From contig JAGLOY010000011.1 in assembly GCA_023138735.1 (NCBI GenBank), positions 40 through 64,039 on the forward strand: a stretch of 64,000 nucleotides of DNA, read 5' to 3'. The position numbers and the translations under genes are program-made. Below are positions 1,643-34,031 of this stretch, piece by piece; the stretch's first letter is position 1; each line of letters begins with the position of its first letter. The notes beneath the pieces are model-generated. The model worked only from the letters and a program-made list of their open reading frames with translations, did not search any database and was not told the origin of the DNA. This stretch comes from Candidatus Aegiribacteria sp. (GTDB lineage Bacteria; Fermentibacterota; Fermentibacteria; Fermentibacterales; JCC-6).

Positions 1643-1949
1643 TGACTTCAGCGTAAAGTAATAGCTTGCAGTAAAAAACGATGTTTATCAACAGGGATAT
1701 CAACAATCAATATATATAGTAACTTAATGAAAGATAATAATTTAACAAAAAACAGTGCGTCAAACGAATACTTACTGTTGAAAACCTTTCGGCACGTACA
1801 GAGTGTTGTCCCAAATACTTGACATAAATGATTATATTGGCTAACTTCCACAATCGTTGACTCCTGAGATAGATATTTACCTGATCGTTGAAACTGATGC
1901 AGTAATCCCACCGTCGTCAAGGTGGGGATTCAGGAAAGAGTGATGATTA
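1643..1949. promoter_or_regulatory. Divergent dnaA / rpmH-rnpA promoter region with DnaA-box-like sites
   Basis: This is a 307-bp AT-rich intergenic region. TTATCAACA lies at 1685-1693 and ATATCAACA at 1697-1705, each one mismatch from the consensus. It could serve dnaA autoregulation or be a second oriC half. Confidence 0.45.
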
Positions 1950-2416
1950 ATGAAAAGAACCTTTCAGCCAAGCAACCTGTCAAAGGCAAGAAGACATGGA
2001 TTCCGCAAAAGAATGTCGACAAAGAGCGGCAGAAGAACAATCAACGCCAGAAGGAGAAAAGGAAGAAAGAAATTGATTCCCTGATACGGAAAGAGAAAAC
2101 CCTGAAAAAAGGTTACCAGTTCAGAAAAGTTTTTAGAAAAGGTGTAGCTTTCAGGGGTGTATCATTCAGGGCCGTATATATTAAGAATACCCTGGGCAAT
2201 ATACGTCTGGGGTTTTCACTTTCCGCAAAAAGTGGAAACGCTGTGAAAAGAAACCTTATGAGAAGAAGGATCAAGGGACTTGCGGAACAGAAATGTAAAA
2301 GGCTCGGAGCGGATATAGTTATATTACCGGCAGGAAAGCTGCGGGATGCAAAGTGGACGGATATAAAATTGGATTTTGAGAAGATGGTGTCAACAATAGA
2401 AAACGATACCGACTGA
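1943..2416 (+). CDS. rnpA: Ribonuclease P protein component; the reading frame fully overlaps rpmH
   Basis: The RnpA-like core is [27 protein letters not shown]...[14 protein letters not shown]. The only canonical in-frame starts upstream of the core are ATG 1943, GTG 1940 and GTG 1922. From 1946 up to and including the LKKGYQF motif (about 2108-2128) there is no ATG, GTG or TTG, only CTG 2081, ATT 2072 and ATA 2084. The identity is firm; the start is uncertain. Confidence 0.8.
1950..2084 (+). CDS. rpmH: 50S ribosomal protein L34
   Basis: Not in the ORF track because it is shorter than 60 aa. The hand translation is [44 protein letters not shown], a near-canonical L34 sequence. TGA stop at 2082-2084. 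Confidence 0.93.
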
Positions 2417-2429
2417 AGAGAAAACATCC

Positions 2430-2693
2430 ATGAGAGAGAATGACTGCAGAATAAAAAAAGCGGCAGAGTTTTTACTGATATGTACAATCAAGGGATACAG
2501 GAGATTCATATCACCAGTGTTTCCATCGAGCTGCATATACAGCCCGACATGCAGTGTTTATGCTGAAACAGCTATCAGAAGGTACGGAGTCATCAGGGGA
2601 TTGAGGTTGGCGACATTGCGCCTGTTCCGATGCCATCCGTTCAGAAAAGGTGGATACGATCCTGTTCCGGACAAATGGGAGAAACGTAAATGA
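2430..2693 (+). CDS. yidD: Membrane protein insertion efficiency factor YidD
   Basis: The 87-aa ORF carries YRRFISPVFPSSCIYSPTCSVYAETAI...GGYDPVP, the YidD signature. Its stop overlaps the yidC start (ATGA). Confidence 0.92.
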   Translation: MRENDCRIKKAAEFLLICTIKGYRRFISPVFPSSCIYSPTCSVYAETAIRRYGVIRGLRLATLRLFRCHPFRKGGYDPVPDKWEKRK

Positions 2694-4279
2694 GTGATCA
2701 AAAGAGGCTCCTTATGGCTGCCGTATTAATGGCAGCTGTGCTGTTTATCAGCTGGCAGTTCATGGGGAAATCAGGAACACCCGAAAGCTCGCAGATATCG
2801 CAGCAGACAACCGACTATGTACAGCAGGAAGAACCGACGATGCTTGATGATTCCGTATCTGCTGGCAAGCAACACATTGAAATAATTCCTAATAAAGCAA
2901 ATAATGAAGATATAGAAACCGTATTACCTGATGAAAGAGTAATTAAGGTAATAATATTCGACGGCGATAATATCATTGTGGAAGCAGATATATCAACATT
3001 CGGCGGGACTGTAGTAGGGTGGAAACTACCTCAATACGAGGATATGCCAGGTGCGGAAAGCCATGGCAGCATCAATTTTGATGGAAACAGCTGGACTGCA
3101 ACTAGTGCTTATTATGAAACATTATCGGAAGATACAATCATTGTCAGTGAAAACCCGCAAACGCTTGTATTGATTGACCCGTCCGGCACGAGTGAAATTC
3201 AATATACATTCACACCCGGTCAGTACGGTTTTCTTTACGAAACCGAGGGGCTTACTGAAATAGCAGTACTGAACGCTGGAATACTCCCTGTAAGTGAAAT
3301 GAATTCCAACCTCTCAAGATATTTCAAAGCACAGTGGAACGCGGAGAAGGTTAAGAGTAGAGGTTCGAATAGTATTACAACTGATGATCAGGTAGGTAAC
3401 GTAGAGTGGATAGCTGCAAGATCGCAGTACTTCGCGATTATCATGCTGCCGCAGTCCTTTGATAGAGCATACGGATATCTTTACGCATCAGCAGAAGACG
3501 AATCGCCGTCAATAGGATTACAGGATAACAGAATATACGTTTATGCGGGACCCCTTGATTACGGAAGACTGAGGTCACTGGGCAGAGACACGAGCCGACT
3601 GGTTGATTTCGGATGGCCGATAATAAGGGATATAGGAAGACTGCTTTTCTGGTTCTGTACATCAGTACTGTCATTCGTCGGCAACTGGGGAATCAAGATC
3701 ATACTGCTGGCAATAGTGCTGAAACTTGTTCTCATGCCGCTTACTACGAAGAGTTTCAAATCGATGGCAATGCTTAAACAGGTACAACCTAAAATGAAGG
3801 AACTGCAGGAGAAGTATAAGAGCGACCCGAAGGCTCTGCAGAGCGCAATGCAGAAACTGTACCGGGAGGAGGGCGTGAACCCTCTGGGAGGGTGCCTTCC
3901 GCTTATTATGCAGATGCCTGTCTTCTTTGCTCTGTACCGTGTTCTTGCCAATTCTGTACAGCTGCGGGGAGCACCATTCATTCTATGGATTCAGGATCTG
4001 TCAAAACCGGAAATACTGATTCCATTCCAGTCTCCGATATTGGGCCTTCACGGCGTCGGCATACTTGCTCTTCTTATGGGAATAGCGATGTTCCTTCAGC
4101 AGAAGATGACCATGACCGATCAGAACCAGAAGGGTATGATGTACATGATGCCTATATTCATGACATTCTTGTTCATGAGGTTCCCCGCAGGCCTTACCAT
4201 GTACTGGTTCAGCAACAGCCTGCTGACAATATGGCAGCAGCAGCTCATCAAGAAAAAGCTTGAGGCCGGGCAGAACTGA
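2690..4279 (+). CDS. yidC: Membrane protein insertase YidC (long form with a large periplasmic P1 domain)
   Basis: The 529-aa ORF has an N-terminal TM segment and a periplasmic domain of about 300 aa. The conserved C-terminal core reads KSMAMLKQVQPKMKELQEKYK...GVNPLGGCLPLIMQMPVFFALY. Confidence 0.95.
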   Translation: MSDQKRLLMAAVLMAAVLFISWQFMGKSGTPESSQISQQTTDYVQQEEPTMLDDSVSAGKQHIEIIPNKANNEDIETVLPDERVIKVIIFDGDNIIVEADISTFGGTVVGWKLPQYEDMPGAESHGSINFDGNSWTATSAYYETLSEDTIIVSENPQTLVLIDPSGTSEIQYTFTPGQYGFLYETEGLTEIAVLNAGILPVSEMNSNLSRYFKAQWNAEKVKSRGSNSITTDDQVGNVEWIAARSQYFAIIMLPQSFDRAYGYLYASAEDESPSIGLQDNRIYVYAGPLDYGRLRSLGRDTSRLVDFGWPIIRDIGRLLFWFCTSVLSFVGNWGIKIILLAIVLKLVLMPLTTKSFKSMAMLKQVQPKMKELQEKYKSDPKALQSAMQKLYREEGVNPLGGCLPLIMQMPVFFALYRVLANSVQLRGAPFILWIQDLSKPEILIPFQSPILGLHGVGILALLMGIAMFLQQKMTMTDQNQKGMMYMMPIFMTFLFMRFPAGLTMYWFSNSLLTIWQQQLIKKKLEAGQN

Positions 4280-4318
4280 CGCTATCCTTGTAGTGCTTTT
4301 TTCATGGAAGTGTAGCAA

Positions 4319-5578
4319 GTGAATACAAAATCACCGGAGATCATCTGTGCAGTTGCGACACCTGAGGGAACATCCGCGCTCTCGGTAATAAGAGTCAGCG
4401 GAAGCGGATCCTTTGAACTCCTTGAAAATATAATGTCCCTTGAAAAGAACCGGCTGGCGGGAATGCGCAGAAAGGTCGGGAAAATAATTGAGGAGGGCAG
4501 AATCGTTGACGAGGTTGTTGCTGTATCGTGGCCGGAAGGACGAAGTTTTACGGGTGAGGAAATGGTTGAAATCATCTGTCACGGAATACCGCACTCCGTA
4601 AGAGAAATTATGGAGATACTGATCAGGAACGGAGCAAGGAGAGCCGAGCCGGGTGAATTTGCAAGAAGGGCATTTGGTAATGGAAGGTTGAATGCCGTTC
4701 AGATCATAGCTCTTGCCGCTCTGTGGGACACGGATAGAGGGTGGAAAGCCTTCGACAGCGTAACAGAGGAGTGCTGTAGAAAACTGCTGAGCGGAATAGA
4801 AAGCACCAGGGAAACTGTAGAGGGGATAATTGAATTCGGTGAAACACACCTTGACGGAAATGACAAGAGAGTCAGCAGTGTATTCGGTGATCTGATGGAA
4901 AGAGCACAGGATTTTATTAGAGAAGCTGCATCAATTGAAAAGAGCAGCAGAGTAATGATAATGGGTCCCGTCAATTCTGGAAAATCCACGCTTTTCAACT
5001 TGCTGACCGGAAAGGGAAGGGCTCTCGTCTCCGGTGAGCCGGGCACCACACGCGATGGTTCAACCTGTTTTATGGAAGTAAGCGGCAGGAAAATGCAGCT
5101 TTGCGATACAGCGGGAACAGACGGCCTTGGATTGGACAGGAGCGCGTCAGAAGCGGTTATCGATGGACTTGATGGTACTGAGAGAGTGATCTGGATGTCA
5201 GTTGGCGGAAAGACACCGCCTGGCGACGAGATAAAGGAAAAGGCAGGAGAGATAATAGAGATAGCAGCGAAGAGCGATCTGATCACCGAAAAAGAAACAG
5301 AAGGCGTACTGTGCGTATCCTCAGTCTCCGGAGAGGGTCTGGAGGAACTGAAATTGATACTGTCAAGAATCCCCGGGAGCATGTCTCTGGCAGGGGCCGC
5401 CGGGCGAATTTTTGAAAGCATAAAAGAGTCGTGCAGTTTTATCTCAAACGGAGAGTATGACCTGGCTGCAGAACATCTTAGCGAAGCCGAGATTGAAGCA
5501 AGAAGAATTATCGGCAAGGGAGAGAATATACGGTTGAGCGTAGAAAGAGCTCTCTCTGGTATGTGTGTTGGAAAATGA
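4319..5578 (+). CDS. mnmE: tRNA modification GTPase MnmE
   Basis: GTG start. G domain motifs GPVNSGKSTLFNLL and DTAG are present, and the C-terminus ends CVGK (compare the CIGK motif). Position is syntenic. At 419 aa it is somewhat short for the family. Confidence 0.9.
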   Translation: MNTKSPEIICAVATPEGTSALSVIRVSGSGSFELLENIMSLEKNRLAGMRRKVGKIIEEGRIVDEVVAVSWPEGRSFTGEEMVEIICHGIPHSVREIMEILIRNGARRAEPGEFARRAFGNGRLNAVQIIALAALWDTDRGWKAFDSVTEECCRKLLSGIESTRETVEGIIEFGETHLDGNDKRVSSVFGDLMERAQDFIREAASIEKSSRVMIMGPVNSGKSTLFNLLTGKGRALVSGEPGTTRDGSTCFMEVSGRKMQLCDTAGTDGLGLDRSASEAVIDGLDGTERVIWMSVGGKTPPGDEIKEKAGEIIEIAAKSDLITEKETEGVLCVSSVSGEGLEELKLILSRIPGSMSLAGAAGRIFESIKESCSFISNGEYDLAAEHLSEAEIEARRIIGKGENIRLSVERALSGMCVGK

Positions 5579-7380
5579 TGAACACGTGGGATGTAATAGT
5601 TGTCGGCGGCGGGCATGCCGGAATAGAGGCTGCGCTTGCAGCAACTCGACTCGGCTGCAGGGTAGTTCTGATATCAGCGAAGACGAGCCGTATTGGCGAG
5701 ATGTCATGCAATCCTGCAATAGGAGGAATTGCGAAAGGGACAATTGTACGCGAAATAGACGCGCTTGATGGTTCAATGGCACGGTCAGCAGATGCTACAA
5801 CACTGCATTTTCGAATGCTTAATAGGAGAAAAGGTCCGGCCGTTTGGGGACCAAGGGTTCAGTCGGATGCCGCGGAGTACGCTAGAGCACAGCAGTTGTA
5901 CATCAAATCCAGCGGAATAGAAATCATTGAAGACGAAGTAACAGCTCTCGATGGAGTAACGGATAGAGTAACAGGAGTAAAGTGCAGAAAAAGCGGAAGC
6001 ATCCGAGGGAAAACGGTGGTTCTCGCTGCGGGTACCTTCCTCGGAGGAAGGCTCTTCAGGGGAGAAGAACTATGGAAGGGCGGAAGAATAGGAGACCTGT
6101 CTGCTGAGGCGCTGGAGAAGGATCTTACAGAAAGAATGTTCCACGTGGAACGATTTAAAACAGGTACACCCGCCCGTATCGTTCGAAGCACGGTGAATAC
6201 TGCTGAACTGGAGGTGCAGCGGTCAGAACTTACGAAATTTACTTTCAGCTTCGGGAAATACAAGCCCAATGACAAAGAAGAGGTGTGCTATTTAACGTAC
6301 ACCGATAAAAATACAATGAATATTGCAAAGGACTTCCTTCATCTTTCCCCGTTGATGGCTGGAAGGATCGATGGAACCGGGCCAAGATACTGCCCAAGCT
6401 TCGAGGATAAGGTAGTCAAATTCCCTGATAGACAGAGACACAAGATCTACGTTGAGCCGATGGGGTACGGTTCAAGAGATTTTTACCTGAACGGACTTTC
6501 CACCAGCCTTCCAAGGGAAGCACAGCTAAAAATGGTGAGATCGCTTCCCGGGTTCGAGAAGGCAGAGATATCGGATTACGGCTATGCGGTTGAGTACTCT
6601 TACTTTCATTTCTCTGAAATTGATGAAACACTGAGGCTCCGAAGAACTGAAAACGTGTTTGCTGCTGGACAGATATGCGGAACATCCGGATATGAAGAAG
6701 CAGCTGGTCTGGGTTTGATTGCCGGCGCAAATGCCGGCAGGCTGGCAAAGAGCCTTGAGCCGCTCATAATGTCCAGAATGGATTCATATATCGGAGTAAT
6801 GATAGACGATATAGTAAGCAAAGGAGCAGACGAGCCATACAGAATGTTTTCATCAAGAGCTGAGAACAGGCTGTATTTACGACAGGATAATGCCGATAGA
6901 AGGCTTTATAGATCCGCAGACCGTTTCGGGATACTGTCAGAACAGAAGAGGGAACTTCTGACCGGCAACCTGAAGGAAGCGGATACTATATGGAATGTCC
7001 TCGAAGGCGAGACGGTCGACGGGACGCGCTTATCCAAGTGGTGTAGAAGACCCGGGGTCAGCGTCGAAGATGTTGTTACCAGGTCACGTAATCTTGTCAA
7101 CAGGGATGAGAGGGTTCTGGCGTCAGTGATTCTTGACGAAAAATACAGAGGGTACATTGAAAGAAACCTCAGAAGGCATGAATCACGTAGAGATCTGGAG
7201 AAAATCAGCCTCAGAAGGATAAGTTCTTACATGGAGATAGATGAAATATGCTGGGAGGCAAGGGAAGTTCTTGAAAGGGAAAGGCCGGAAACACTGGCGC
7301 GTGCGGAGAGAATACCGGGAATAAGACCCACAGACCTGAATGGTCTTCTGATATATCTGGGCAGGCAGCGTTCCACGTGA
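5575..7380 (+). CDS. mnmG: tRNA uridine 5-carboxymethylaminomethyl modification enzyme MnmG (GidA)
   Basis: An FAD fold motif (DVIVVGGGHAGIEAALA) sits at the N-terminus. The start is taken at the ATG overlapping the mnmE stop (ATGA at 5575-5578); the tracked ORF begins at 5563. Confidence 0.95.
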   Translation: MMNTWDVIVVGGGHAGIEAALAATRLGCRVVLISAKTSRIGEMSCNPAIGGIAKGTIVREIDALDGSMARSADATTLHFRMLNRRKGPAVWGPRVQSDAAEYARAQQLYIKSSGIEIIEDEVTALDGVTDRVTGVKCRKSGSIRGKTVVLAAGTFLGGRLFRGEELWKGGRIGDLSAEALEKDLTERMFHVERFKTGTPARIVRSTVNTAELEVQRSELTKFTFSFGKYKPNDKEEVCYLTYTDKNTMNIAKDFLHLSPLMAGRIDGTGPRYCPSFEDKVVKFPDRQRHKIYVEPMGYGSRDFYLNGLSTSLPREAQLKMVRSLPGFEKAEISDYGYAVEYSYFHFSEIDETLRLRRTENVFAAGQICGTSGYEEAAGLGLIAGANAGRLAKSLEPLIMSRMDSYIGVMIDDIVSKGADEPYRMFSSRAENRLYLRQDNADRRLYRSADRFGILSEQKRELLTGNLKEADTIWNVLEGETVDGTRLSKWCRRPGVSVEDVVTRSRNLVNRDERVLASVILDEKYRGYIERNLRRHESRRDLEKISLRRISSYMEIDEICWEAREVLERERPETLARAERIPGIRPTDLNGLLIYLGRQRST

Positions 7381-7384
7381 AACA
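7369..7384. promoter_or_regulatory. parS centromere-like site
   Basis: CGTTCCACGTGAAACA matches 15 of 16 positions of the TGTTNCACGTGAAACA consensus, counting N as free. It spans the mnmG stop / rsmG start and lies 0.7 kb upstream of parAB. Confidence 0.7.
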
Positions 7385-7991
7385 TTTCCCTCTTTCATTT
7401 CCACCGTTGAGCGCGATGGTCGAGGATATAAACGAACTCAGGGTTAGTGTTGATGAAAGACAGCTTGAGCTTTTTGGACAGTTTGCGGGGATTCTTCTTG
7501 ATAGATCAGCCAGAACAAACCTGATAGGGCCCGGAGAAAGGGTCAGGTTGTGGAGAAGACACTTCCTTGAGTCAATTCAGTATGCTCTACTGCTTGACCG
7601 GTACAGGACAGTGGTTGATATCGGAAGCGGTAACGGTTTTCCCGGAATGATACTTGCGATTATGGGGTTCCGCATGATACTTCTTGAACCAAGGAGAAAA
7701 AGGCATCTGTTCCTTGGCTTCGCGGCATCGGAACTTGGTCTTTCAAATTGCACAACAGTCCCGCTGAAGCTTGAGAATTTCGATCCGGAATACGGGGTGA
7801 AGCAATTCGTGGCAAGGGCCGTAGCCCCGCCTGCCTCGCTACTCGCGAGAATAGGTACAGTTGCCGGAAAAGGTTCTTCGCTCGTGTACAGACAGCCTGA
7901 GATATTGGAGAATGAGGAATTTGAAAGTTACATTGAACTCAACTGCCCTCCGCTTGACCGTAGTGGATTTCTGGTGCAGTATCGAGTCTGA
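7377..7991 (+). CDS. rsmG: 16S rRNA (guanine527-N7)-methyltransferase RsmG (GidB)
   Basis: The 204-aa ORF has a SAM-binding motif (VVDIGSGNGFPGMILAI). The GTG start overlaps the mnmG stop (GTGA). Position is syntenic. Confidence 0.9.
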   Translation: MKHFPLSFPPLSAMVEDINELRVSVDERQLELFGQFAGILLDRSARTNLIGPGERVRLWRRHFLESIQYALLLDRYRTVVDIGSGNGFPGMILAIMGFRMILLEPRRKRHLFLGFAASELGLSNCTTVPLKLENFDPEYGVKQFVARAVAPPASLLARIGTVAGKGSSLVYRQPEILENEEFESYIELNCPPLDRSGFLVQYRV

Positions 7992-8056
7992 TTCGAATTA
8001 CAGCCCTTATTGTATATGCAACTTCCTTCGATAAGATAACTCAGTAAAGGAATGTC

Positions 8057-8818
8057 ATGACAGCATCAAGGATAATAGCAGTTGCGAACCAGAAGGGCGG
8101 TGTTGGAAAAACAACTACTGTCATCAACCTCGGCGCAAGCCTTGCTATGAACGACTGCGATGTTCTTCTGATAGACTTTGACCCACAGGTGAACGCAACA
8201 TCAGGATTGGGGATTCGCCAAACTTCAGAAATGAATATCAGCTCTCTGATTCTCGGGAAAAACAAACTTGAGGACGTTATTCAACCCACTGGAGTAGAGG
8301 GACTTATGATTATTCCAGGATCCAGAAGCCTTGCCGGTCTGGAGATTGAGCTCGCGGGAGCTGAATACAGGGAATATTTACTTAAGGAAGCTCTTGAAGA
8401 AAATACCGGCATGTTTGATTACGTACTGATCGATTGCCCCCCGTCATTGGGTTTACTGACCATCAACGCCCTGGTTGCGTCTAATGAAGTTCTTGTTACG
8501 CTGCAAAGTGAATACTACGCCCTGGAAGGTCTTTCGCACCTGATGGATACGGTGAGGAATATAAGTCAGCTCTGGAATCCCGGATTGAAGATAAACGGGG
8601 TTGTTCTTACGATGTTCGATAGAAGGCTTATCCTCAGCCGCGAAGTTGAGGAGGAAGTAAGAGAATATATGGGGTCAACACTTTTCGAAACACACATTCC
8701 AAGGAACGTAAAGCTCAGCGAAGCACCGAGTTATGGTATTCCCGCGCTTTTGTACGACGCCAATTCGAAGGGAGCATTAAGTTATTTTGATCTGGCCAGG
8801 GAGGTGATGAACAGATGA
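8057..8818 (+). CDS. parA: Chromosome partitioning ATPase ParA/Soj
   Basis: It has the deviant Walker A (NQKGGVGKTTT) and typical length (253 aa). It overlaps parB. Confidence 0.95.
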   Translation: MTASRIIAVANQKGGVGKTTTVINLGASLAMNDCDVLLIDFDPQVNATSGLGIRQTSEMNISSLILGKNKLEDVIQPTGVEGLMIIPGSRSLAGLEIELAGAEYREYLLKEALEENTGMFDYVLIDCPPSLGLLTINALVASNEVLVTLQSEYYALEGLSHLMDTVRNISQLWNPGLKINGVVLTMFDRRLILSREVEEEVREYMGSTLFETHIPRNVKLSEAPSYGIPALLYDANSKGALSYFDLAREVMNR

Positions 8819-9681
8819 CAAAGCGAAAAAGAAGAGCGCTTGGAAAAGGTATGGAAGAGATCTTTCCAGGTCTCAGTGACGTTGATAAACTGAGCCCCAG
8901 GGAAGTTGATATAGAATTAATCGATACGAACCCTTTCCAGCCCAGGAAACAATGGAGGAAAGAGGAAATTATATCTCTGGCGCAGTCCATTATCTCTCAG
9001 GGAATACTTCAGCCGCTTGTGATAAGAAGGATCGAAGGAAGGTATCAGCTGATTGCCGGAGAGCGGCGCTTGAGGGCAGCTCGCGAAGCGGGTCTTAAAA
9101 AAGTTCCGGTTGTTGTCAGGGAAGCGGACGATCAGCAGATGCTTGCGCTTGCTCTTGTGGAAAACATACAACGGCAGGATCTGGGCCCCGTTGAGAAGGC
9201 TGAAGCCTTTCAACGGCTTTCTTCGGAATTTGACCTGACCCAGGAGGAAATGGGAGAAATAGTTGGTATAAGCCGATCCGCGGTGGCAAATTTTCAGAGA
9301 CTCCTGGACCTTCCTGAACAGGTGCTCGATATTCTCAGGACAGGTCAGCTGAGTATGGGACACGGAAGGGCTTTGCTTGGGCTTTCGAGTAAAACCATGA
9401 TATCCCGGATGGCGGCCTTCGCGGTTAAGCGAGGTTTATCTGTAAGGCAGATTGAAGCGAGGGTTCGAAAGCAGAATTCAGAAAAAGGGAAAAGAGCAAA
9501 CAGATCTTCCATAATGGAAACCGCTGAAATAAGAAGCCTTGAGGATAATCTGCAGAGAATTTTAAAAACAAAGGTCCGGATAAGCGGAAGAAAGAAGACC
9601 GGTAAAATAGAGATCAGTTATCACAACCTTGATGAGCTGGACAGGATTCTTGCTATTATCAAATCCGGGGTAAATGCCTGA
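8815..9681 (+). CDS. parB: Chromosome partitioning protein ParB/Spo0J
   Basis: It carries the ParB box GERRLRAAREAGL, an HTH region (TQEEMGEIVGISRSAVANFQRLL) and a QPRK motif near the N-terminus. Confidence 0.95.
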   Translation: MTKRKRRALGKGMEEIFPGLSDVDKLSPREVDIELIDTNPFQPRKQWRKEEIISLAQSIISQGILQPLVIRRIEGRYQLIAGERRLRAAREAGLKKVPVVVREADDQQMLALALVENIQRQDLGPVEKAEAFQRLSSEFDLTQEEMGEIVGISRSAVANFQRLLDLPEQVLDILRTGQLSMGHGRALLGLSSKTMISRMAAFAVKRGLSVRQIEARVRKQNSEKGKRANRSSIMETAEIRSLEDNLQRILKTKVRISGRKKTGKIEISYHNLDELDRILAIIKSGVNA

Positions 9682-9777: not shown

Positions 9778-9945
9778 ATGGCACACAAAATTAACGATGA
9801 GTGTATTGCCTGCGGAGCGTGTAAACCGGAATGTCCAGTTGACGCTATAAGCGAAGGAGATAAGTACACGATAGATCCCGACACATGTATAGACTGCGGA
9901 GCATGCGTTCCGGCCTGCCCTGTGGGAGCTATTGACGTTCCGTAA
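9778..9945 (+). CDS. 2x[4Fe-4S] ferredoxin (55 aa)
   Basis: Two CxxCxxCxxxCP motifs are present (CIACGACKPECP, CIDCGACVPACP). The start is taken at the ATG preceded by GGAAGGAG; the tracked ORF starts earlier, at 9736. Confidence 0.9.
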   Translation: MAHKINDECIACGACKPECPVDAISEGDKYTIDPDTCIDCGACVPACPVGAIDVP

Positions 9946-23399: not shown

Positions 23400-25283
23400 T
23401 CAGTCCAGCACTACGAATTTTCCCGTTTCCACCTTGTCTCCCGCCTGAAACCTCAGGAAATAGACCCCTCCGGGAATGTGGCTGCTACCTATGGTGCAGG
23501 AATGATTTCCCGCAGGCATTTCCGAATCAAGCACATCTTCTACAAGTCTGCCGTAAATATCGTAGACGGTAAGATGAACATGGCATGTAGCCTGCAGCGT
23601 GAATTCTATCGATGATTGTGTTCTGAACGGGTTGGGGAAGACCGTGATATTCGTAGATACTGCAGGGGTCCCGGCTTCAATTCCGAGGCCCTCTCCCCAG
23701 ATGCTATCTCTGTAGTAAGCGTCCAGCAGGAGATCAGCGTTCATCCTGAGTCCATCAAGACCCAGCCCGGCAACCCAGCCTCCTACAACATGAAGAGAAT
23801 CACCATCGGCCAGCTCGACCGGGCCGAAGCAGATGAGGAACCTGTAATCGAAGACAGGATTGTTCAATGACAGTGGCATATCATATACGAACGGGAACGG
23901 ACCCGGGTTATCAGGAACTGTGACTTCCGGTGCATTCGGGTTGCCGACCCAGTCAAGCATGTAGGCCGGTCCACTGTGGAGCCCGTTCAGATCAGGATTC
24001 TTCCCCCACATGTAATCGTACTTCTCCGGATCTGTACCCGGATCGCTTTCCCAGTTCCACCACAGGTGACTGATTGGAATTGGATAGCCGTATACATCTA
24101 TCGGTCTTTCGATGGATTGGTCAGCTTTTACAATCCAGAAATCGAGAAGTCTCCAGCCGAGAAACCCGTTACAGGCAGGGCTCACGAGCGGATCACCCGA
24201 ATCATCCAATGAACTTGAGGGGCTATCGCCATCCCACATGTAACTGAGGTTCCTTGGAACTACAAGGTATGTAGTGTCGCCTACTGTATGGCTGTAATGC
24301 CAGTATGGCATGCCATCAGAAAACAGGGTCACACCGGATTCGGGGTCCTGCCTGTACAGTGTATCGGTACCGACTACCTTCGCCAGGACCGTGAAATGGT
24401 CGCTTACGCCATTCTGGTCCACATCGTTATCCGGAATCCCGTCTGCTCCGGGGTAGTTGTAGTGGTACCAGATATTCTCGGGATCACCTGGTGGAAGCGA
24501 ATTATCAGGATTCTGCTGGTACGTGTAATCATCCTGAGTACTCGCATTGACCGGTCCATCGAAAGCGTACTCGAACGTCGCATCGGGATCGTTGCACCAG
24601 ATAGCGTGTCCATCGTAGTAAACAAGATCATCCAGATTGCATTCCGTGACATCAGCGGTAGCAACGTCGCAGTCTCCCCTGATCCCTGCGACGAACGCGT
24701 CAAGCGGGACACCCGGGCTGCCCTGGTCACTCCAATGCGTGAAGATCATCTCCATGGCCATGAAGTTATCGTATCCTGCTATATCCCATGTGTAGTTCTC
24801 CACCCAGACTCCAAGTCCGTAGGGAGTATCATGATCCGGATCCCAGTCATCCATCCCGTACTGGGTCTGCTCGGGGGCCACGGACCCAGGCAACAGATAT
24901 TCCATTGGATACCCATCGCTCGGTTGGAGCTCCCAACCCCCGTAATCGCAGCAGACCGCCCACTTATCCGTTGAATCTGCAGCAGTGATGTTCCCATAGC
25001 AGCAGGTCCAAAGGTCTCCACAAAAGAGATAACTGCTGCCCAAACCAATCGGCCACTCCATGGATGCGTAATTGGCCCATGGGTCTCCCCACAGCCCTAT
25101 ATTCGTAACCGATGAGCTGATGTTGCCGATGGCGTGTACTTCAGTGACTTCAGGGGGGCGTACGTCTGTACCCGGTGATAAGGGTTGAGGCAACAGCTGC
25201 AATTCCCCGGCAGCAGCGTTTGAGAATAAGGCCAAAAAAATACATGTACTGATGAATACCGATGATTTGGTTTTCTTTATCAT
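23400..25283 (-). CDS. Secreted protein with T9SS-type C-terminal sorting domain, unknown function
   Basis: The start is taken at M13 (MIKKTKSSVFISTCIFLALFSNAAAG) after GGAG. The last ~80 aa read ITVFPNPFRTQSSIEFTL...GGVYFLRFQAGDKVETGKFVVLD, matching the Por/T9SS CTD pattern. The body is rich in Trp, Asp, Tyr and Pro. Confidence 0.75.
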   Translation of the reverse strand: MIKKTKSSVFISTCIFLALFSNAAAGELQLLPQPLSPGTDVRPPEVTEVHAIGNISSSVTNIGLWGDPWANYASMEWPIGLGSSYLFCGDLWTCCYGNITAADSTDKWAVCCDYGGWELQPSDGYPMEYLLPGSVAPEQTQYGMDDWDPDHDTPYGLGVWVENYTWDIAGYDNFMAMEMIFTHWSDQGSPGVPLDAFVAGIRGDCDVATADVTECNLDDLVYYDGHAIWCNDPDATFEYAFDGPVNASTQDDYTYQQNPDNSLPPGDPENIWYHYNYPGADGIPDNDVDQNGVSDHFTVLAKVVGTDTLYRQDPESGVTLFSDGMPYWHYSHTVGDTTYLVVPRNLSYMWDGDSPSSSLDDSGDPLVSPACNGFLGWRLLDFWIVKADQSIERPIDVYGYPIPISHLWWNWESDPGTDPEKYDYMWGKNPDLNGLHSGPAYMLDWVGNPNAPEVTVPDNPGPFPFVYDMPLSLNNPVFDYRFLICFGPVELADGDSLHVVGGWVAGLGLDGLRMNADLLLDAYYRDSIWGEGLGIEAGTPAVSTNITVFPNPFRTQSSIEFTLQATCHVHLTVYDIYGRLVEDVLDSEMPAGNHSCTIGSSHIPGGVYFLRFQAGDKVETGKFVVLD

Positions 25284-25559
25284 TTTATTTTCTCCAAGGA
25301 ATGCGACCACAGCTACCAAATACTACCCATTATTCCCCTAGAAAATGATAGTAACGCAATATGACAAAGTCAAGCAGTCATGTTTAGTATATATTCCTAT
25401 TAATCAAGTAGATAAATAGATCAAAATAATCGATTGTTCTCGAAACGATTGCAGATATCCGGAAAGCTTCTGAGAAAACAATTCCCGGCTTGACAGCAAC
25501 AGCAATGGAGACAATGTTTTAATATGTGAAGGTATGATTTACGGAAGAAAGGAGATAAA

Positions 25560-26579
25560 ATGAAGTTTATTCTGTTACTGGCACTGGTTCCCGCTGCATT
25601 TGGGGCCGGTGTTGTCCTTACCATCGATGCTCCGGATACAGGGATATCCGGGCTGGCATTCGGATCGGGCAGCCTGTGGGCAGTCGATGGTACTACCAGC
25701 TATGTATATGAGCTGGATCCATCCAACGGTGCCGTCCAGAGTTCCTTTTTCTTCCCTTACGGTACTCCCGCCGGATTGGCCTTCAGCGGAAGCGACCTCC
25801 ACATACTTCGAGTCGATGCGGGTACCTACTACGGCTACGTTTACAGATACTCCACCGCAGGAGCCCTGCAGGGTAACTACGACTCCACCTGTTGAGGAAG
25901 CGCACTATACCAGTCGGTGACTGGTATCGCTTCCAACGGTACTTACACTTACGTTCTCGGAGATGGTACTACCGGAGATCCTCTGGTAGAGTACTTCAAC
26001 AGTGCAGGTGCTGTGCAGACAAATCCATATATGGATGACCTTCCGGCGTTATCCACCCATTACGATATCGGTTACGAGGGCGGTAACAGTTCAGGTGATA
26101 TCTGGGTGGCATCTGATGCCGCCGACAGCCCCATCAAGGCTTATAACTCCAGCAGCCTGCTGGTGAACTACGTTCCGGAGACTGATCTCCCCGCAGGTAC
26201 CGAATGCAGGGGTCTTTGTCTCGATGCGGAAGGTTACCTCTGGGTCAGCGATGATAATGCCGATAAGATCTTCAAGCTCGACATCACAACCGGAATTGAA
26301 GGGGGTGTAGTTCCTCAGGAACAGCCTGGTCTTACAGTTTCCACCAATCCCTTCTCAGGCTCGGTCAATATTTCGGTGACCGGCGCTTCAGGGCCGGTTG
26401 ATATGGCAATCTATGATCTATCAGGCCGAACCATCCTCAGAGCGGAGTTGGCGATGGGCAGTTCCTTCACATGGGACGGAAGAACAACATCTGGTGAAAC
26501 TGCTCCTACCGGCACTTACCTGATTCATACCACAAGCCAGACGGGTCACATGATGAGAGCGCTGGTTACAAAACTCTAA
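25560..26579 (+). CDS. Secreted NHL/beta-propeller-like protein with T9SS-type CTD, interrupted by one in-frame TGA (codon 112): candidate selenoprotein, recoding site or pseudogene
   Basis: ORFs 25560..25895 and 25917..26579 are in the same frame and are separated only by the TGA at 25893-25895. The signal peptide (MKFILLLALVPAAFGAG) exists only on the first part. The T9SS CTD (LTVSTNPFSGSVNISV...TGTYLIHT) exists only on the second. Propeller-like blades (GLAF..LW..D / GLCLDAEGYLWVSDDNADKIFKLD) occur on both sides. Confidence 0.6.
25896..25934 (+). other. SECIS-like two-tier RNA hairpin immediately 3' of the in-frame UGA
   Basis: The lower stem pairs GGAAGCG (25896-25902) with CGCTTCC (25928-25934). 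A 5' bulge CACT follows. The upper stem pairs ATACCAGT (25907-25914) with ACTGGTAT (25920-25927), and the loop is CGGUG. All 15 base pairs are Watson-Crick. The upper stem begins 11 nt after the UGA. Confidence 0.55.
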
Positions 26580-26603
26580 ACCGAATCAGCGGGTATTACA
26601 TTG

Positions 26604-26634
26604 AATTGGGCCGGACTGAATGTCCGGCCCAATT
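26604..26634. terminator. Bidirectional intrinsic terminator
   Basis: A 13-bp stem pairs AATTGGGCCGGAC (26604-26616) with GTCCGGCCCAATT (26622-26634), followed by cctttt. It lies between convergent genes. Confidence 0.75.
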
Positions 26635-26661
26635 CCTTTTCAATGCGGATACTAACTGATC

Positions 26662-27132
26662 TTAATCCAGTTCGACTCCAATAACTCTCCTTGCACAGGA
26701 ATACCTTCGGGAGTAGTTCGAATGGCTCAGGGGAGTTATCACCACACCACGGTCAAGGTATGATGAACAGTGAATGAAATCCCCATCCCCCAGGTAAATG
26801 CCCGTGTGCTTCGGGTTGTTGAATATCAGCAGGTCTCCAGGCTGAAGGTCTTCCCGGTCAACCGCTATTCCCAGCGATTCAACAGCACTTACGGTTCGCG
26901 GCAGCGGAATACCGTTATCGTTGTACACCCTCCACGCCAGGCCGCTGCAGTCAAAGCCGCTACTGTCAGTGCCGCCGTATACGTAGGGTACTCCAAGATA
27001 AGAAACAGCATCTCTGAGAATACTCTCGACAACGGCAGATAAACTATCGTCCGGGCAGGGAGTGTCTCCCTCTTCACCCAGAACGGGCCATGTCAGGAGA
27101 AATGTGCATAACAGAATTAATGGCAGTCGCAT
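26662..27132 (-). CDS. NlpC/P60 (C40) peptidoglycan endopeptidase
   Basis: It has a signal peptide, the catalytic Cys context GFDCSGLAWRVY and the His context HTGIYLGDGDFIH. Confidence 0.88.
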   Translation of the reverse strand: MRLPLILLCTFLLTWPVLGEEGDTPCPDDSLSAVVESILRDAVSYLGVPYVYGGTDSSGFDCSGLAWRVYNDNGIPLPRTVSAVESLGIAVDREDLQPGDLLIFNNPKHTGIYLGDGDFIHCSSYLDRGVVITPLSHSNYSRRYSCARRVIGVELD

Positions 27133-28962: not shown

Positions 28963-30171
28963 CTAGTGTGGTACAATGCTGAGAAGAACTCCGGCAGCGA
29001 TGGCACTTCCGATAACTCCGGCGACATTAGGAGCCATTGCATGCATGAGAAGGTGGTTGTTCCTGTCATACTTCCTTCCCTCGATCTCCACAACCCTGGC
29101 GGAATCGGGAACTGCTGATACCCCTGCCGCCCCTATAAGAGGATTAATCTTGTTGTCTCCCTTGAGAAAAAGGTTCATGAACTTCGCGAAGAGAACTCCT
29201 CCGGCTGTGGCAATCGCAAAACTGATAGCTCCCAGTACGAAGATCTTCAGAGAATTCAGGGTCAGGAAATAAGTTGCCTGAGTACTGGTTCCCACAGCGA
29301 ATCCAAGAAGTATGACTACAATGTTATTAAGGCTTCCCTGTGCGCTTTTAGCCAGTCTGTCTGTTACTCCGCTTTCCTTCAGGAGATTTCCGAAAAACAG
29401 CATGCCAAGAAGAGCGATCGCTCCCGGTGCGATGAACGCCGTTATAAGGAAGGCGATTATGGGAAAAAGAATCTTCTCGGTCTGCGAAACCCGGCGGACT
29501 GGTTTCATCCTGCGCAGACGCTCTTCCTTTGTTGTAAGAAGCCTCATGATAGGAGGCTGTATAACAGGCACAAGCCCCATATAGGAATAGGCCGCGATCG
29601 CTATCACCCCAAGCAGGGCCGGGGACATCTGGCTGGCAACGAATATCGCGGTGGGACCGTCGGCACCTCCGATAATTCCAATGGCAGCAGCCTCCTGCAG
29701 AGTGAACCCGAGGAACAGCGATCCAAGCAGTGTAAGAAAGATGCCTATCTGGGCAGCTGCTCCGAGAAGCAGCAGTTTGGGGTTGGAGAGCAGGGCACTG
29801 AAATCGGTCATGGCCCCAATCCCAAGAAAGATCAGAGGAGGGAAAAGACCGCTCTTTACACCGAAATAGAACAGACCGAAGACGGACTGCTGTCCGCCTA
29901 GAACATCCTGATAACCGATCGGCATAAGCTCGGGATTGTATGGAATATTGCCGGCGATTATACCGAATCCGATAGGCACAAGGAGAAGAGGCTCGTAATT
30001 CTTTTTAATGGCCAGGTAAATCATTACAAGGCCGAGAATTATCATTACGATATTCCCTATCTCCACCTGGCCGAATCCGGTATCATCCAGGTACGACAGC
30101 AGGTCCAGTTGCTGGCTGTGGCCCTGGAGGCTTCCGGTGATCCACATGATGAGTTTGGAGGAAAAGGTCAT
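28963..30171 (-). CDS. mmdB: Na+-translocating decarboxylase beta subunit (OadB/MmdB/GcdB family)
   Basis: The 402-aa polytopic membrane protein has family-typical segments (IGIIGGADGPTAIF, GAAGVSAVP). It sits in an operon with the carboxyltransferase, biotin carrier and OadG-like subunits. Confidence 0.88.
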   Translation of the reverse strand: MTFSSKLIMWITGSLQGHSQQLDLLSYLDDTGFGQVEIGNIVMIILGLVMIYLAIKKNYEPLLLVPIGFGIIAGNIPYNPELMPIGYQDVLGGQQSVFGLFYFGVKSGLFPPLIFLGIGAMTDFSALLSNPKLLLLGAAAQIGIFLTLLGSLFLGFTLQEAAAIGIIGGADGPTAIFVASQMSPALLGVIAIAAYSYMGLVPVIQPPIMRLLTTKEERLRRMKPVRRVSQTEKILFPIIAFLITAFIAPGAIALLGMLFFGNLLKESGVTDRLAKSAQGSLNNIVVILLGFAVGTSTQATYFLTLNSLKIFVLGAISFAIATAGGVLFAKFMNLFLKGDNKINPLIGAAGVSAVPDSARVVEIEGRKYDRNNHLLMHAMAPNVAGVIGSAIAAGVLLSIVPH

Positions 30172-30174
30172 TTA

Positions 30175-30615
30175 TCAGCCTCCGACTTTCATGATGACCG
30201 CATTTTCAAGGATGCTCTCACCTTCGGATGCGAGAATTTCACCAACCTTCCCCGAGAGGGGTGACTCTATCTCGTTTTCCATCTTCATCGCTTCCATTAT
30301 AGCAACAGGCTGTCCCTTTTTAACATCGTCACCCTCTTTTACCAGGATCTTCAGGATAAGTCCGGGTAAAGGTGCTATTACGTCTCCGGGTCCGGCTGCA
30401 GTGCCCGGGGGGAATGTTCTATCGGGGACCTCAGCGGGATTATGAACCTGTCGATGCCTGTTTATAACAGGGGTTTTCGATGACTTTCTCATCGGGGCTT
30501 CAACCTTGATACGGTAGGTTTTGCCGTCGAGAGTCACATCCACCGTGTCATCAAGTATTCTTCCTAAATCAACAGTGTAAGTTCTGTCGTTGATCGTTAT
30601 TTTGTACTCAGGCAT
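30175..30615 (-). CDS. mmdC: Biotin carboxyl carrier subunit of the decarboxylase
   Basis: The biotinylation motif is EAMKMENEI. The start is taken at the internal ATG ([10 protein letters not shown]), overlapping the upstream stop by 8 nt. Confidence 0.85.
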   Translation of the reverse strand: MPEYKITINDRTYTVDLGRILDDTVDVTLDGKTYRIKVEAPMRKSSKTPVINRHRQVHNPAEVPDRTFPPGTAAGPGDVIAPLPGLILKILVKEGDDVKKGQPVAIMEAMKMENEIESPLSGKVGEILASEGESILENAVIMKVGG

Positions 30616-31027
30616 TCGGGCGACTCCTGACTCTGTTCTGCAGCGATCCTGACTCCTGAATATGCTCAGCCCTTCCAGCAAGCTTCCATGGAGTATAGGG
30701 CTTGTCATGAGCTTCCCAGGTCAGTTTCATATTCTCCACCTGATCAAGAAGGCAGAAGTGAGCATGAATCGCCGAAGTTACCGCAGCTACTTCCTCCGGG
30801 GTCATGGTTTTACTATCCTGCTGTGAAAGAGATGATCTATTCTTTGCTCTCCGGTTCAGACCGAACCTGTCTTTAATCCACCTCTCAAGGACGGGGAGCA
30901 TAAAGGCAAGAAGGACAAGCCCTGTGAATACGGTTGTCATTCCAACAAGGGCTATTCCAAAGCCCCCTTCAATATCAGCGGTACTGAATTGGATTATCGA
31001 GAGGATCACCGCTCCTGCCAAACTCAT
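30608..31027 (-). CDS. mmdD: OadG-like small membrane subunit of the decarboxylase (delta/gamma)
   Basis: A single N-terminal TM segment reads [27 protein letters not shown], typical of OadG. Operon context supports the call. Confidence 0.7.
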
Positions 31028-32574
31028 AACGGGATATTCCCATGCTTTTTGGGAGGCATCGTCTGCCTTTTCCCTGCAAGCATTTCAAGCGCCTTGATAA
31101 TACGGAACCTCGTATTTGACGCTATTATCACATCATCAAGATAACCTCTTGAAGCTGCGTCGTAAGGATTTGCGAATTTTTCCCGGTATTGGTCTACCAG
31201 CTCCTTTTTTCTGGCATCGGGATCCTTTGCCTCGTCTATATCACGCCTGAAAATGATCTCAACGGCCCCTTCGGGTCCCATCACTGCTATCTCAGCAGTG
31301 GGCCAGGCGTAGTTTATATCCGCTCTGATATGCTTTGAACTCATCACATCGTATGCGCCGCCGTACGCTTTTCTGATTATCACTGTAATCTTGGGCACTG
31401 TAGCTTCGGCATAGGCAAAAAGAAGCTTCGCTCCGTTCCTGATAATTCCGCCGTACTCCTGCGCCGTTCCAGGCATGAAACCGGGCACGTCCACAAGGGT
31501 TATCACAGGGATATTGAATGCGTCACAGAAACGGACAAAACGGGCAGCCTTTACAGAAGCGTCGTTGTCCAGAACCCCTGCAAGGTAGGAGGGCTGGTTC
31601 GCGACCAATCCAACTGAATTACCGTTCATCCTTGCGAATCCCACAACAATATTGGGAGCGAAGGCACGCTGAATCTCAAGAAATTCACCGTTGTCCACGA
31701 TGGCTTCAATTATAGTTCGTATCTCGTAAGGCTTGTTGGGATTGTCAGGCACGAACTCGTCCAGCCACATTTCCATCCTGTCAGGCGGATCAGTGCAGGA
31801 TACCCTTATGGGATCCTCCATATTGTTCTGCGGCATGTAACTGATGAGCTTTCTAATGATAAGAAGAGCTTCTCTCTCGTCTTCGCAGACAAGGCTGCAT
31901 ACACCGCTTCGTTTGCTGTGAATACCAGGGCCGCCAAGCTGTTCTTTCGTGACATCTTCACCTGTAACAGCTTTAACAACCGTAGGACCGGTAACGAACA
32001 TGTAGCTTATACCTTTAACCATTATCGTGAAATCGGTTATGGCAGGGCTGTAGACGGCTCCTCCTGCGCAGGGACCCAGTATGGCTGAAATCTGCGGTAT
32101 AACGCCGGAATAGAGTACGTTCTTCAGGAAGATCTTGCCGTACCCGGCAAGGCTCTCGATCCCTTCCTGTATCCTCGCCCCTCCGGAATCGTTAAGCCCG
32201 ATGAGGGGAGCGCCGTTCATGGCAGCCATATCCATGATCTTCAATATCTTCTCAGCGAAGGTTTCCGAAAGGCTTCCTCCGAATACAGTAAAATCATGTG
32301 AAAAGACGTAAACGTGCCTGCCGTCTATTGTTCCATAACCGGTGACCACGCCATCACCAGGGATCTTCTTCTTATCCAGCCCGAAGCTTGTAGCCCTGTG
32401 GGTAACAAGCATATCAAATTCTTCAAAACTCTCGTCATCGAGAAGAAGATCTATTCTTTCTCTTGCTGTCAGCTTACCTTTTTGATGCTGTTTCTCGATC
32501 TTTTGCTCACCGCCACCCGCAAATGCCTTTTCTCTGAGGGCATGGAGTTTATCGGCTTTTTCAAGAGAACTCAT
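31024..32574 (-). CDS. mmdA: Methylmalonyl-CoA decarboxylase alpha subunit / acyl-CoA carboxyltransferase
   Basis: The carboxyltransferase family sequence includes [22 protein letters not shown] and [14 protein letters not shown]. The start is taken at [11 protein letters not shown], right after the mce stop. Confidence 0.9.
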
Positions 32575-32575
32575 C

Positions 32576-33004
32576 TTAGTTTTCCTTTTCAGGTTTCGGA
32601 TGTTCACACAATTCGGTCAGAACCTTACCGCTTGCAGCGGGATGGATGAAGGCTATTGCAGTTCCTCCCGCCCCGTCCCGAGGAGTGTCGTCTATCATTC
32701 TTACTCCCTTGCGCTTCATTGAATCTATTTCCTCTTCAGCGCTGTCGACCGAGTAAGCGATATGGTGTATTCCCTGCCCGCGTTTCTCAATTGCCTTCGC
32801 GATAGGACTATCCTCCGAAGTCGGCTCAAGGAGCTCTATTCTTGATTCCCCAACGCTGAACATCCCAACGCGAACCTTCTGTGAGGGTACTTCCTCTATC
32901 CCCAGGAAAGTCAATCCCAGGTTATCCCGGTAGAACGGCATTGACTCTTCAAGGCTCTTGACTGCAATACCGATGTGATCAATCCCTTTTACACTCATTC
33001 TCAT
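32576..33004 (-). CDS. mce: Methylmalonyl-CoA epimerase (VOC fold)
   Basis: The 142-aa ORF carries [13 protein letters not shown]...IELLEP...GIHHIAY and has the matching operon context. Confidence 0.88.
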
Positions 33005-34031
33005 TCTCCCGTTTATTATTATGAAATCCGGAGAGCATTTCGCCTATCCAATAGGGAGTTGTCCTCCCCTCAAGAATAGATTCAATTGTCTCCTCAATAC
33101 TGCCGTACCTGTCCAGAAGCAGTTTTTGAGCAAGTTCCCTGCCCTTCTCCCGTACAATACTGTTGAGTAACAGCGCAGTCCTTCTATGTGCGGTGGCCTT
33201 CCGCCCGGCTCCCGAAGAAGTACAGCTGCCAATAGCATCCGTAAGTTCTGCAATACCTTCCCCGGTCTGAGCGGAACACCTGATAACAGGGGGCCTGTCA
33301 GCCTGGTCGGGAATGAGTTCAAGGCTTGCGTTCACTGACATTTCCAATTGTTCTATACCGGATCTGTCAGCCTTGTTAAGAACTAAAATGTCCCCTATCT
33401 CCATGATCCCCGCCTTCATGGTCTGCACTTCGTCACCCAGGCCGGGCACAAGAACCAGAAGAGTTATGTCCGCAAGGGATGCAATTTCAACCTCCGCCTG
33501 ACCAACCCCCATGGTTTCAACAAGTACCGGGTCATATGATGCTGCGGCAAGAACTTCAAGGGCATCTCTCGTGGTTCCGGAAAGCCCTCCAAGGTGACCT
33601 CTGTTAGCGGCGCTTCGGATAAACACTCCCGGGTCCGAAGCGTGCTCCTGCATCCTGACCCTGTCCCCCAGAAGGGCTCCCCCGGAGAAGGGAGAGGACG
33701 GGTCAACAGCAATTACGCCGACTCTATTTTTGTGCCGTCTATAGTACGATATAAGGCGGTTTGTAAGCGTACTCTTCCCTGCTCCAGGGGGACCGGTAAT
33801 ACCGATGGTAAGGGATGACCGCTGCGGATTGTAGAGGGAATGCAGTATCGAAGGAGCAAGAGGGTGGCCGTTCTCTACCATAGAAAGAACTCTCGCCAGT
33901 CCACGCTGGTCGAAACTCCGTACTTTACGCACGAAATGATCTGCCTCACTGGAAAGCAAGTCTACCTCCGGTCCGGCTGCTTCCACGGGTGGTTCAGCGG
34001 GTCTGGATTTCCTGCTCAATGAAATCCACAA
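32979..34031 (-). CDS. meaB: Methylmalonyl-CoA mutase-associated G-protein chaperone MeaB/ArgK
   Basis: P-loop [12 protein letters not shown], plus VETMGVGQ and NKAD. The start is uncertain: ATG at 34031 overlaps the upstream gene by 38 nt, and GTG at 33986 is an alternative. Confidence 0.88.

Follow-up and report, generated by a model that had tools for sequence, protein, structure and literature searches.

The DNA studied here is a 64,000-nucleotide stretch from Candidatus Aegiribacteria sp. (phylum Fermentibacterota; contig JAGLOY010000011.1), the whole of which we call the window. On its forward strand two open reading frames (ORFs), 25560-25895 and 25917-26579, share one frame and are parted only by the TGA at 25893-25895. 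From 25896 onward the frame is free of stops up to the terminal TAA, and read-through of the TGA gives 340 codons including that TAA. Mechanical ORF calling resumes at the GTG at 25917, inside the loop of an RNA hairpin that lies directly 3' of the UGA. An earlier interpretation made from the letters alone (the sequence-only reading) had proposed that this UGA encodes selenocysteine (Sec), that the hairpin is a bacterial selenocysteine insertion sequence (SECIS), and that the product is an exported propeller protein with a type IX secretion system (T9SS) sorting domain. We followed up this proposal computationally.

The interrupted gene and its predicted product

The features of the gene are collected in Table 1. 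By inspection, the N-terminal 16 residues show the typical n-h-c pattern of a signal peptide, with AFG-A, and they are conserved in homologs; their low predicted local distance difference test (pLDDT) values are expected of a cleaved leader. Such an N-terminus is present on the upstream part only, and nothing comparable to the AGGAG before ATG 25560 could be found by inspection upstream of GTG 25917. The residue context across the UGA is NYDSTC-U-GSALYQSVTGIASNGTYTYVLGDGTTGDPLVEYFNSAGAVQTNPYMDDLPALSTHYDIGYEGGNSSGDIWVASDAADSPIK. The sequence-only reading had described two same-frame ORFs separated by a lone TGA, a signal peptide confined to the first of them and no Shine-Dalgarno sequence before the second, and our frame check and inspection agree with it on all three.

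Table 1. Features of the interrupted gene (positions in the window)
Feature	Position	Strand	Basis and remarks
Shine-Dalgarno-like AGGAG	25550..25554	+	5 nt before ATG 25560; sequence inspection
Complete read-through coding sequence	25560..26579	+	339 codons; UGA is codon 112; TAA at 26577-26579; layout kept in homologs
Probable Sec-type signal peptide, MKFILLLALVPAAFGA	25560..25607	+	Inspection; conserved in homologs; low pLDDT
Predicted five-bladed β-propeller, residues 17-241	25608..26282	+	AlphaFold, Foldseek, Pfam DUF6923 repeat (29.4 bits); spans the UGA
Conserved Cys codon TGT	25890..25892	+	Directly 5' of the UGA; TGT in 11/11 close sequences
In-frame UGA, proposed Sec codon, residue 112	25893..25895	+	TGA in 23/23 junctions
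SECIS-like two-tier hairpin	25896..25934	+	Fold, silent-site freeze, covariation, covariance model
Predicted C-terminal β-sandwich, T9SS type-A sorting domain, residues 257-339	26328..26576	+	Profile matches, model, Foldseek
Intrinsic-terminator-like hairpin and T-run	26603..26635	+	3' of the true stop; sole terminator-like site in 25300-26750

An AlphaFold model was computed from the homolog alignment with X at the Sec position (mean pLDDT 84.3, rising to 95-97 over the N-terminal blades). It predicts one continuous all-β domain across residues 17-241, a disordered linker (245-255) and a β-sandwich (257-338). The strand pattern is that of five four-stranded blades, the N-terminal strand 17-23 joining the last of them, and the propeller noticed in the sequence-only reading thus runs across the stop as a single domain. 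Cys111 and the proposed Sec112 follow the closing strand of blade 2 (103-107) and precede strand 116-125, which opens blade 3 as its innermost strand. The D-to-A loops of propellers line the face around the central channel, which is the usual location of active or binding sites. Because these loops generally occupy that face, Cys111-Sec112 would be located near it, a placement deduced from propeller geometry and not from measured coordinates. The sorting domain, as had been stated, is on the downstream part only: FlgD_ig matches there with 35.2 bits (cut-off 27) and Por_Secre_tail/TIGR04183 with a borderline 22.7 bits (cut-off 23), while PF18962 is precomputed on most homologs. The protein is therefore modelled as a signal peptide, a five-bladed propeller and a T9SS sorting domain, an arrangement that would require both halves. 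Since the probable signal peptide is only upstream, the downstream part alone would have no route across the inner membrane.

A conserved UGA with its preceding Cys and hairpin

We collected junction DNA from species-representative genomes, metagenomes and individual contigs, obtaining 21 distinct junctions plus two from tandem paralogs, all from relatives in Candidatus (Ca.) Fermentibacteria/Aegiribacteria down to ~35% protein identity. TGA occupies the same column in all 23 junctions with DNA, while the true terminal stops of the same genes differ (TAG in nine, TAA in seven and TGA in five). With the read-through product as query, 24 homologs at 55-100% identity were retrieved, every one of ~220 residues and starting (M/V)TG(I/V)ASNG, and in dozens of clusters the N-halves stop and the C-halves begin at one and the same column. 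Of 34 close N-terminal halves, 33 have Cys as the last residue before the stop and the remaining one is an incomplete fragment. In a further set of 11 more diverged sequences, each representing a 50%-identity cluster, nine have C as their last residue and the other two close with CGG, giving C-x-x-U. When N-halves and C-halves were aligned together by MAFFT, blade 2 came to lie wrongly on blade 3, and this alignment was left out of the column comparison.

One window taken alone cannot exclude that the interruption is a pseudogene, or an assembly or sequencing error at 25893-25895, next to a fortuitous hairpin, and the sequence-only reading had kept a recent nonsense mutation or sequencing error among its alternatives. 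With relatives at hand this explanation is effectively refuted: the identical split into 111 and 220 residues recurs in three independent assemblies, more than 20 diverged relatives have the TGA as well, both halves are under purifying selection and the hairpin covaries. The comparison of sequences indicates that the interruption is ancient, conserved across the Fermentibacteria/Aegiribacteria lineage and no accident.

Two variants of the family were observed along the way. The tandem paralogs (+ strand TGA positions L014:10992 and L015:1578) lie directly 3' of the first family gene, in the context ...FTVNC*GSQLLSVTGL, with a separate TGA and a separate hairpin, CCUGUC-GGU-GACAGG, in every copy. 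The Cys-Gly-Gly-UGA (C-x-x-U) subfamily comprises L008:9428-10195 (TGA at 9827), L025 and the cluster representatives P0060 and P0092; the read-through ORF of L008 ends 121 codons past the TGA and carries no C-terminal sorting domain.

The hairpin itself folds exactly as the sequence-only reading had described it, in two tiers abutting the UGA. Its lower stem pairs 25896-25902 with 25928-25934 (7 bp) and is followed by an internal loop, CACU, at 25903-25906; the upper stem pairs 25907-25915 with 25919-25927 (9 bp) and is closed by the apical loop GGU (25916-25918). The upper stem begins 11 nt past the UGA and the loop 20 nt past it. The minimum free energy (MFE) is -26 kcal/mol, compared with -13.9 ± 2.7 in 200 shuffled sequences (z = -4.5), none of which folded as well.

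Selection on the RNA was assessed with silent sites and with covariation. Among 11 close sequences we counted codon disagreement between pairs that have the same residue. It is ~0.45 gene-wide and falls to its gene minimum, 0.10-0.13, at codons +4 to +15 after the UGA; codons +5 to +10 (TAC CAG TCG GTG ACT GGT) show zero silent variation, and the internal-loop codons +3 and +4 are free to vary. Where the residue is invariant, 7 of the 8 stem or loop columns use a single codon, whereas elsewhere 7 of 100 do (Fisher p = 9e-7), and the run of six frozen codons has a permutation p = 2e-4. Covariation was measured on a loop-anchored ungapped alignment of 21 sequences. In the stem 90% of cells are paired, against 31-66% when the partners are slid, and five of the nine pairs (24 cells) have changed on both sides. 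The resulting score, 0.419, compares with 0.150 ± 0.024 for shuffles and was reached by none of 500. One stem pair takes three forms among the aligned sequences (A-U, C-G and G-C) and a fourth, U-A, in the tandem paralogs; several lineages have Ser for Gln in the 5' arm (CAG to UCG), balanced by a silent ACU to ACG change in the 3' arm; and in L031 the top two pairs are swapped with the GGU loop and the spacing retained. The apical loop is GGU in 19 of the 21 aligned sequences and GGC in the other two, and it is GGU again in both tandem paralogs. These patterns argue that the hairpin is a selected RNA structure.

A covariance model of the element matched family genes at this site alone, among them the two paralogs absent from its training set (E ~1e-6). 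It detected no similar element elsewhere in 287 kb, and hence no independent sign of other SECIS elements. The absence of matches elsewhere in those 287 kb led us to reject a dispersed repeat or mobile palindrome. A terminator function was rejected as well, since a terminator scan of 25300-26750 marks only the site 3' of the true stop. Rfam at gathering thresholds gave no match in the window, and a scan of the 287 kb for TGA-split ORFs followed by hairpins brought up the family's own tandem paralogs alone, with no known selenoprotein among the results.

The two ORFs could also be explained as a split gene, in which the UGA terminates translation and the GUG in the loop starts it anew, two polypeptides form one propeller and the hairpin tunes their coupling. 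A GTG or ATG is indeed called at the same loop position in most relatives, with a constant stop-to-start distance of 19-22 nt. However, the loop codon is GCG in L014 and L015 and GUU in L031, where TGA and hairpin are retained, and a plain stop would be expected to vary between TGA, TAA and TAG in the way that the terminal stops of these genes do. Termination and reinitiation fails because the start codon in the loop is not kept and the stop is never TAA or TAG. Further, the downstream part has neither a ribosome-binding site nor a signal peptide, yet it carries the T9SS sorting domain, and in the AlphaFold model strand 17-23 from the upstream part completes the last blade, so that the halves are interlocked. 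We consider a split gene very improbable.

The case for selenocysteine at codon 112

TGA is an ordinary stop codon in the window, where 27 of 56 long ORFs terminate with it. In the TGA-ended dnaA, rnpA, yidC, mnmE, mnmG, rsmG, parA and parB, Pfam domains reach the ORF ends. Because TGA terminates full-length, Pfam-covered genes, a genome-wide reassignment of UGA is excluded; the sequence-only reading had reached the same conclusion from genes that include rnpA, mnmE and mnmG. The eight genes form a chromosomal origin-type cluster at 284-9681 (dnaA on the minus strand, then the others in the order given), and the window probably includes the replication origin region.

We compared the hairpin with the bacterial SECIS consensus, the model of Zhang and Gladyshev, using the criteria quoted in a 2026 review (PMC13188914). 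The published apical loop has 3-9 nt and here it has 3 (GGU); the upper stem of 4-16 bp is represented by 8-9 bp; the G required in the first two loop positions, usually as G[G/U], is present as GGU or GGC; the spacing from UGA to loop, published as 16-37 nt, is 17-20 nt; and the MFE, required to be at or below -7.5 kcal/mol, lies between -14 and -23 kcal/mol. By sequence and predicted fold, the hairpin falls within the published range for each criterion. Like the genes of the fdhF paradigm, this one has an in-frame UGA and, directly 3' of it, an intragenic stem-loop with a small G-G/U loop and a strong stem. The fdhF element of Escherichia coli carries a bulged U in its upper stem and has its loop G-U ~23-24 nt from the U of the UGA, and the upper stem-loop of the minimal element begins 11 nt past the UGA. 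The present upper stem-loop begins at that same distance, and its G-U, at +25/+26 (+22/+23 in the short class), is close to the fdhF position. Unlike in fdhF, the upper helix is perfect over 8-9 bp, the protein is neither a formate dehydrogenase nor another known selenoenzyme, and the host belongs to a lineage without documented use of Sec. The hairpin thus appears to fit the general bacterial consensus and not to be a copy of the fdhF type.

On this comparative evidence the UGA very probably encodes Sec through binding of SelB to the hairpin. The conserved UGA, Cys and hairpin, the covariation, the frozen silent sites and the agreement with the consensus all support the central proposal of the sequence-only reading, a Sec codon with an abutting SECIS in the gene of an exported T9SS propeller. 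Positions 25560-26579 would then be one gene for an exported protein of ~339 residues, in which codon 112 is read as Sec and the hairpin acts as a bacterial SECIS. SelB, an elongation factor, would bind the hairpin's GGU loop while carrying Sec-tRNA(Sec) and, competing with release factor 2, would bring this tRNA to the ribosome that has paused at the UGA. The product would bear an adjacent Cys111-Sec112 pair, or Cys-x-x-Sec in one subfamily, and after export via SecYEG and the T9SS this pair may work as a redox or a metal- or metalloid-binding dyad.

The evidence for a structure-dependent event at the UGA would also suit read-through without Sec. A near-cognate or suppressor tRNA (for instance one for Trp or Cys) could decode the UGA, giving a mixture of short and full-length products, with the hairpin serving as a kinetic roadblock or as a site for another factor. 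A conserved UGA and hairpin are compatible with any such recoding, the Sec machinery is not demonstrated and Cys homologs were not found. On the other hand, the GGU loop is kept while stem sequence and residues change, which points to a sequence-specific binder, and it matches the consensus of the SelB type. An ordinary amino acid should allow sense-codon variants, of which we found none, and the strictly conserved neighbouring Cys would have no role, whereas a Cys-Sec dyad predicts it. To our knowledge, conserved hairpin-programmed read-through of UGA is not an established mechanism in bacteria apart from Sec insertion. We therefore regard read-through by another tRNA as quite improbable. A more radical version, less likely than the obligately Sec-containing family considered below, would have no selABCD in these genomes and a hairpin that directs some other recoding of UGA.

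Several observations nevertheless weigh against Sec. The sequence-only reading had suggested looking in homologs for either Cys or a UGA with a conserved hairpin at this column. Relatives supplied the UGA and hairpin, but no full-length form with Cys aligned to the UGA was present among the best matches or among the N-half relatives. More generally, an exhaustive HMMER search of 1.84 billion representatives gave no full-length case of a sense codon at the UGA column among its best 150 matches, and no sense-codon variant was found among the N-half relatives from a 5.8-billion-cluster database. Homologs with Cys in place of Sec are usual for selenoproteins, though not strictly defining. The relatives that run without interruption (P0033, P0035, P0053 and P0152) are more distant paralogs; their residues at this column are unrelated, and the C-U linker is wholly absent from them. 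The upper helix of the hairpin has no bulged U of the kind seen in fdhF. Tblastn with E. coli SelA, SelB and SelD, and ARAGORN for tRNA-Sec, detected none of selA, selB, selD or tRNA-Sec in ~380 kb including duplicate loci, ~74 kb of it from the source organism. ARAGORN reported a single tRNA-Asn in the window and all loci, and the 10 kb past the window end held no sel genes. In the DNA covered, this absence is uninformative rather than negative. Finally, we found no link in the searchable literature between Fermentibacteria, Hyd24-12 or T9SS and Sec.

Database searches show how the family has been recorded. Every named member is entered as "hypothetical protein" and comes from Ca. Aegiribacteria or Fermentibacteraceae. 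The curated selenoprotein families of NCBIfam r20 (June 2026) and Pfam gave no match above cut-off, only T9SS/FlgD-Ig and DUF6923 models matching; the deep-Sep and BSepDB supplements have no entry for the Fermentibacteria lineage; and the family tables of BSepDB, deep-Sep and the 2026 review (PMC13188914) mention no propeller or secreted family. Most likely the UGA interruption marks a previously unrecognised selenoprotein family that annotation has split into two "hypothetical" genes.

A more specific version, to which we give somewhat less than an even chance, is that the protein is an obligately Sec-containing, Fermentibacterota-restricted propeller which the T9SS carries to the cell surface or the medium, for an extracellular Cys-Sec chemistry beyond the reach of sulfur alone. 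In this version no Cys form would exist in ~15 billion predicted proteins, the propeller would be an enzyme or a binding protein and the dyad might handle, for example, polysulfide, elemental sulfur or metal(loid)s. If Sec is encoded, T9SS cargo would gain its first selenoprotein and Fermentibacterota its first sign of Sec use, and a selenol on a T9SS-exported protein would place selenium chemistry outside the cytoplasm, in anoxic sediments and digesters. It would also mean that every pipeline splits a selenoprotein family into two "hypothetical" ORFs, a systematic error across a candidate phylum. Why Sec is retained rather than Cys is an open question (PMC13188914), and a family in which no Cys forms were found would offer a clean case for asking it. 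The hairpin, unusually well resolved by covariation for so short an element, could serve to train or benchmark SECIS models for non-model phyla.

Genomic surroundings and known systems

No conserved operon surrounds the family gene across related loci. Predicted T9SS cargo genes (Por_Secre_tail, FG-GAP, Peptidase_C25) often adjoin it: in the window the neighbour at 23400-25319 on the minus strand matches Por_Secre_tail with 36.9 bits, above cut-off, and others are found in L025, L027, L030 and L031. Further away, 28963-34031 on the minus strand (the same as L017:13047-18476) holds a methylmalonyl-CoA pathway cluster with a sodium-pumping decarboxylase, comprising OAD_beta, a biotinyl carrier, OAD_gamma, a carboxyltransferase, a glyoxalase-type epimerase, MeaB and a B12-binding mutase subunit. 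This cluster fits a propionate-type fermentation.

The sequence-only reading had considered an exported Sec protein unusual, as bacterial selenoproteins are overwhelmingly cytoplasmic. Unusual it would be, but not unprecedented. Periplasmic formate dehydrogenase and [NiFeSe] hydrogenase are exported selenoproteins. Signal peptides together with CU/CC sites are found in SaoB, SaoX and SaoC (Haft and Gwadz 2022, bioRxiv 10.1101/2022.07.06.499078), and an outer-membrane selenoprotein of the MtrB/PioB type is listed in the 2026 review (PMC13188914). The three SAO proteins carry a signal or lipoprotein signal, as the present one probably does, and resemble it in the CC/CU dipeptide, CU being proposed here, and in database entries that usually end at the CU site; their S/Se atoms are predicted to form a metal or organometal binding site (bioRxiv 10.1101/2022.07.06.499078). 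They are ABC-transporter substrate-binding folds or small lipoproteins encoded in a nine-gene operon, mostly of Firmicutes, and they have Cys-Cys forms, whereas our protein is a stand-alone T9SS propeller of Fermentibacterota with no operon and no Cys form found. The NCBIfam models of the SAO families do not match it.

Among structures, PorZ (PDB 5m11), a component of the T9SS and itself a β-propeller cargo with a type-A C-terminal domain, is the top Foldseek match, with the best E-value. It combines a signal peptide, propeller and Ig-like sorting domain, the layout predicted for our protein. It has two propellers and no Sec, and beyond the sorting domain the likeness is at fold level only (template modelling (TM) score 0.32 on the query). 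No T9SS cargo described as a selenoprotein was found in the literature. For the propeller itself the best structural matches are 3nol and 3mbr, both five-bladed glutaminyl cyclases (TM 0.72-0.74 on the target, root-mean-square deviation 3.2-3.5 Å). Identity to the bacterial and plant-type enzymes (PDB 3nol, 3mbr and 2iwa) is 13-16%, the Cys-Sec site is absent from them, and Pfam Glu_cyclase_2 does not match our protein. A shared activity does not follow from this modelled likeness in fold. A Glu_cyclase_2 gene, of the same family as this best structural match, is located two genes upstream of the family gene in L025.

Mammalian thioredoxin reductase ends in Gly-Cys-Sec-Gly, an adjacent Cys-Sec followed by Gly and able to form a selenenylsulfide, and the sequence-only reading had likened the present site to it. 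The tripeptide is common to both, but the resemblance does not extend beyond it. That motif is at the flexible C-terminal end of a flavoenzyme, whereas T-C-U-G-S would be internal, in an inter-blade loop of the propeller, and Pfam finds no pyridine-nucleotide-disulfide oxidoreductase domain in our protein. The SECIS of thioredoxin reductase is a eukaryotic element of the 3' untranslated region, and the element described here is a bacterial intragenic hairpin. The mechanism of Sec insertion would be the standard bacterial one; what would set the protein apart is the lack of a Cys form, its propeller fold, its role as T9SS cargo and its occurrence in a phylum new to selenoproteins.

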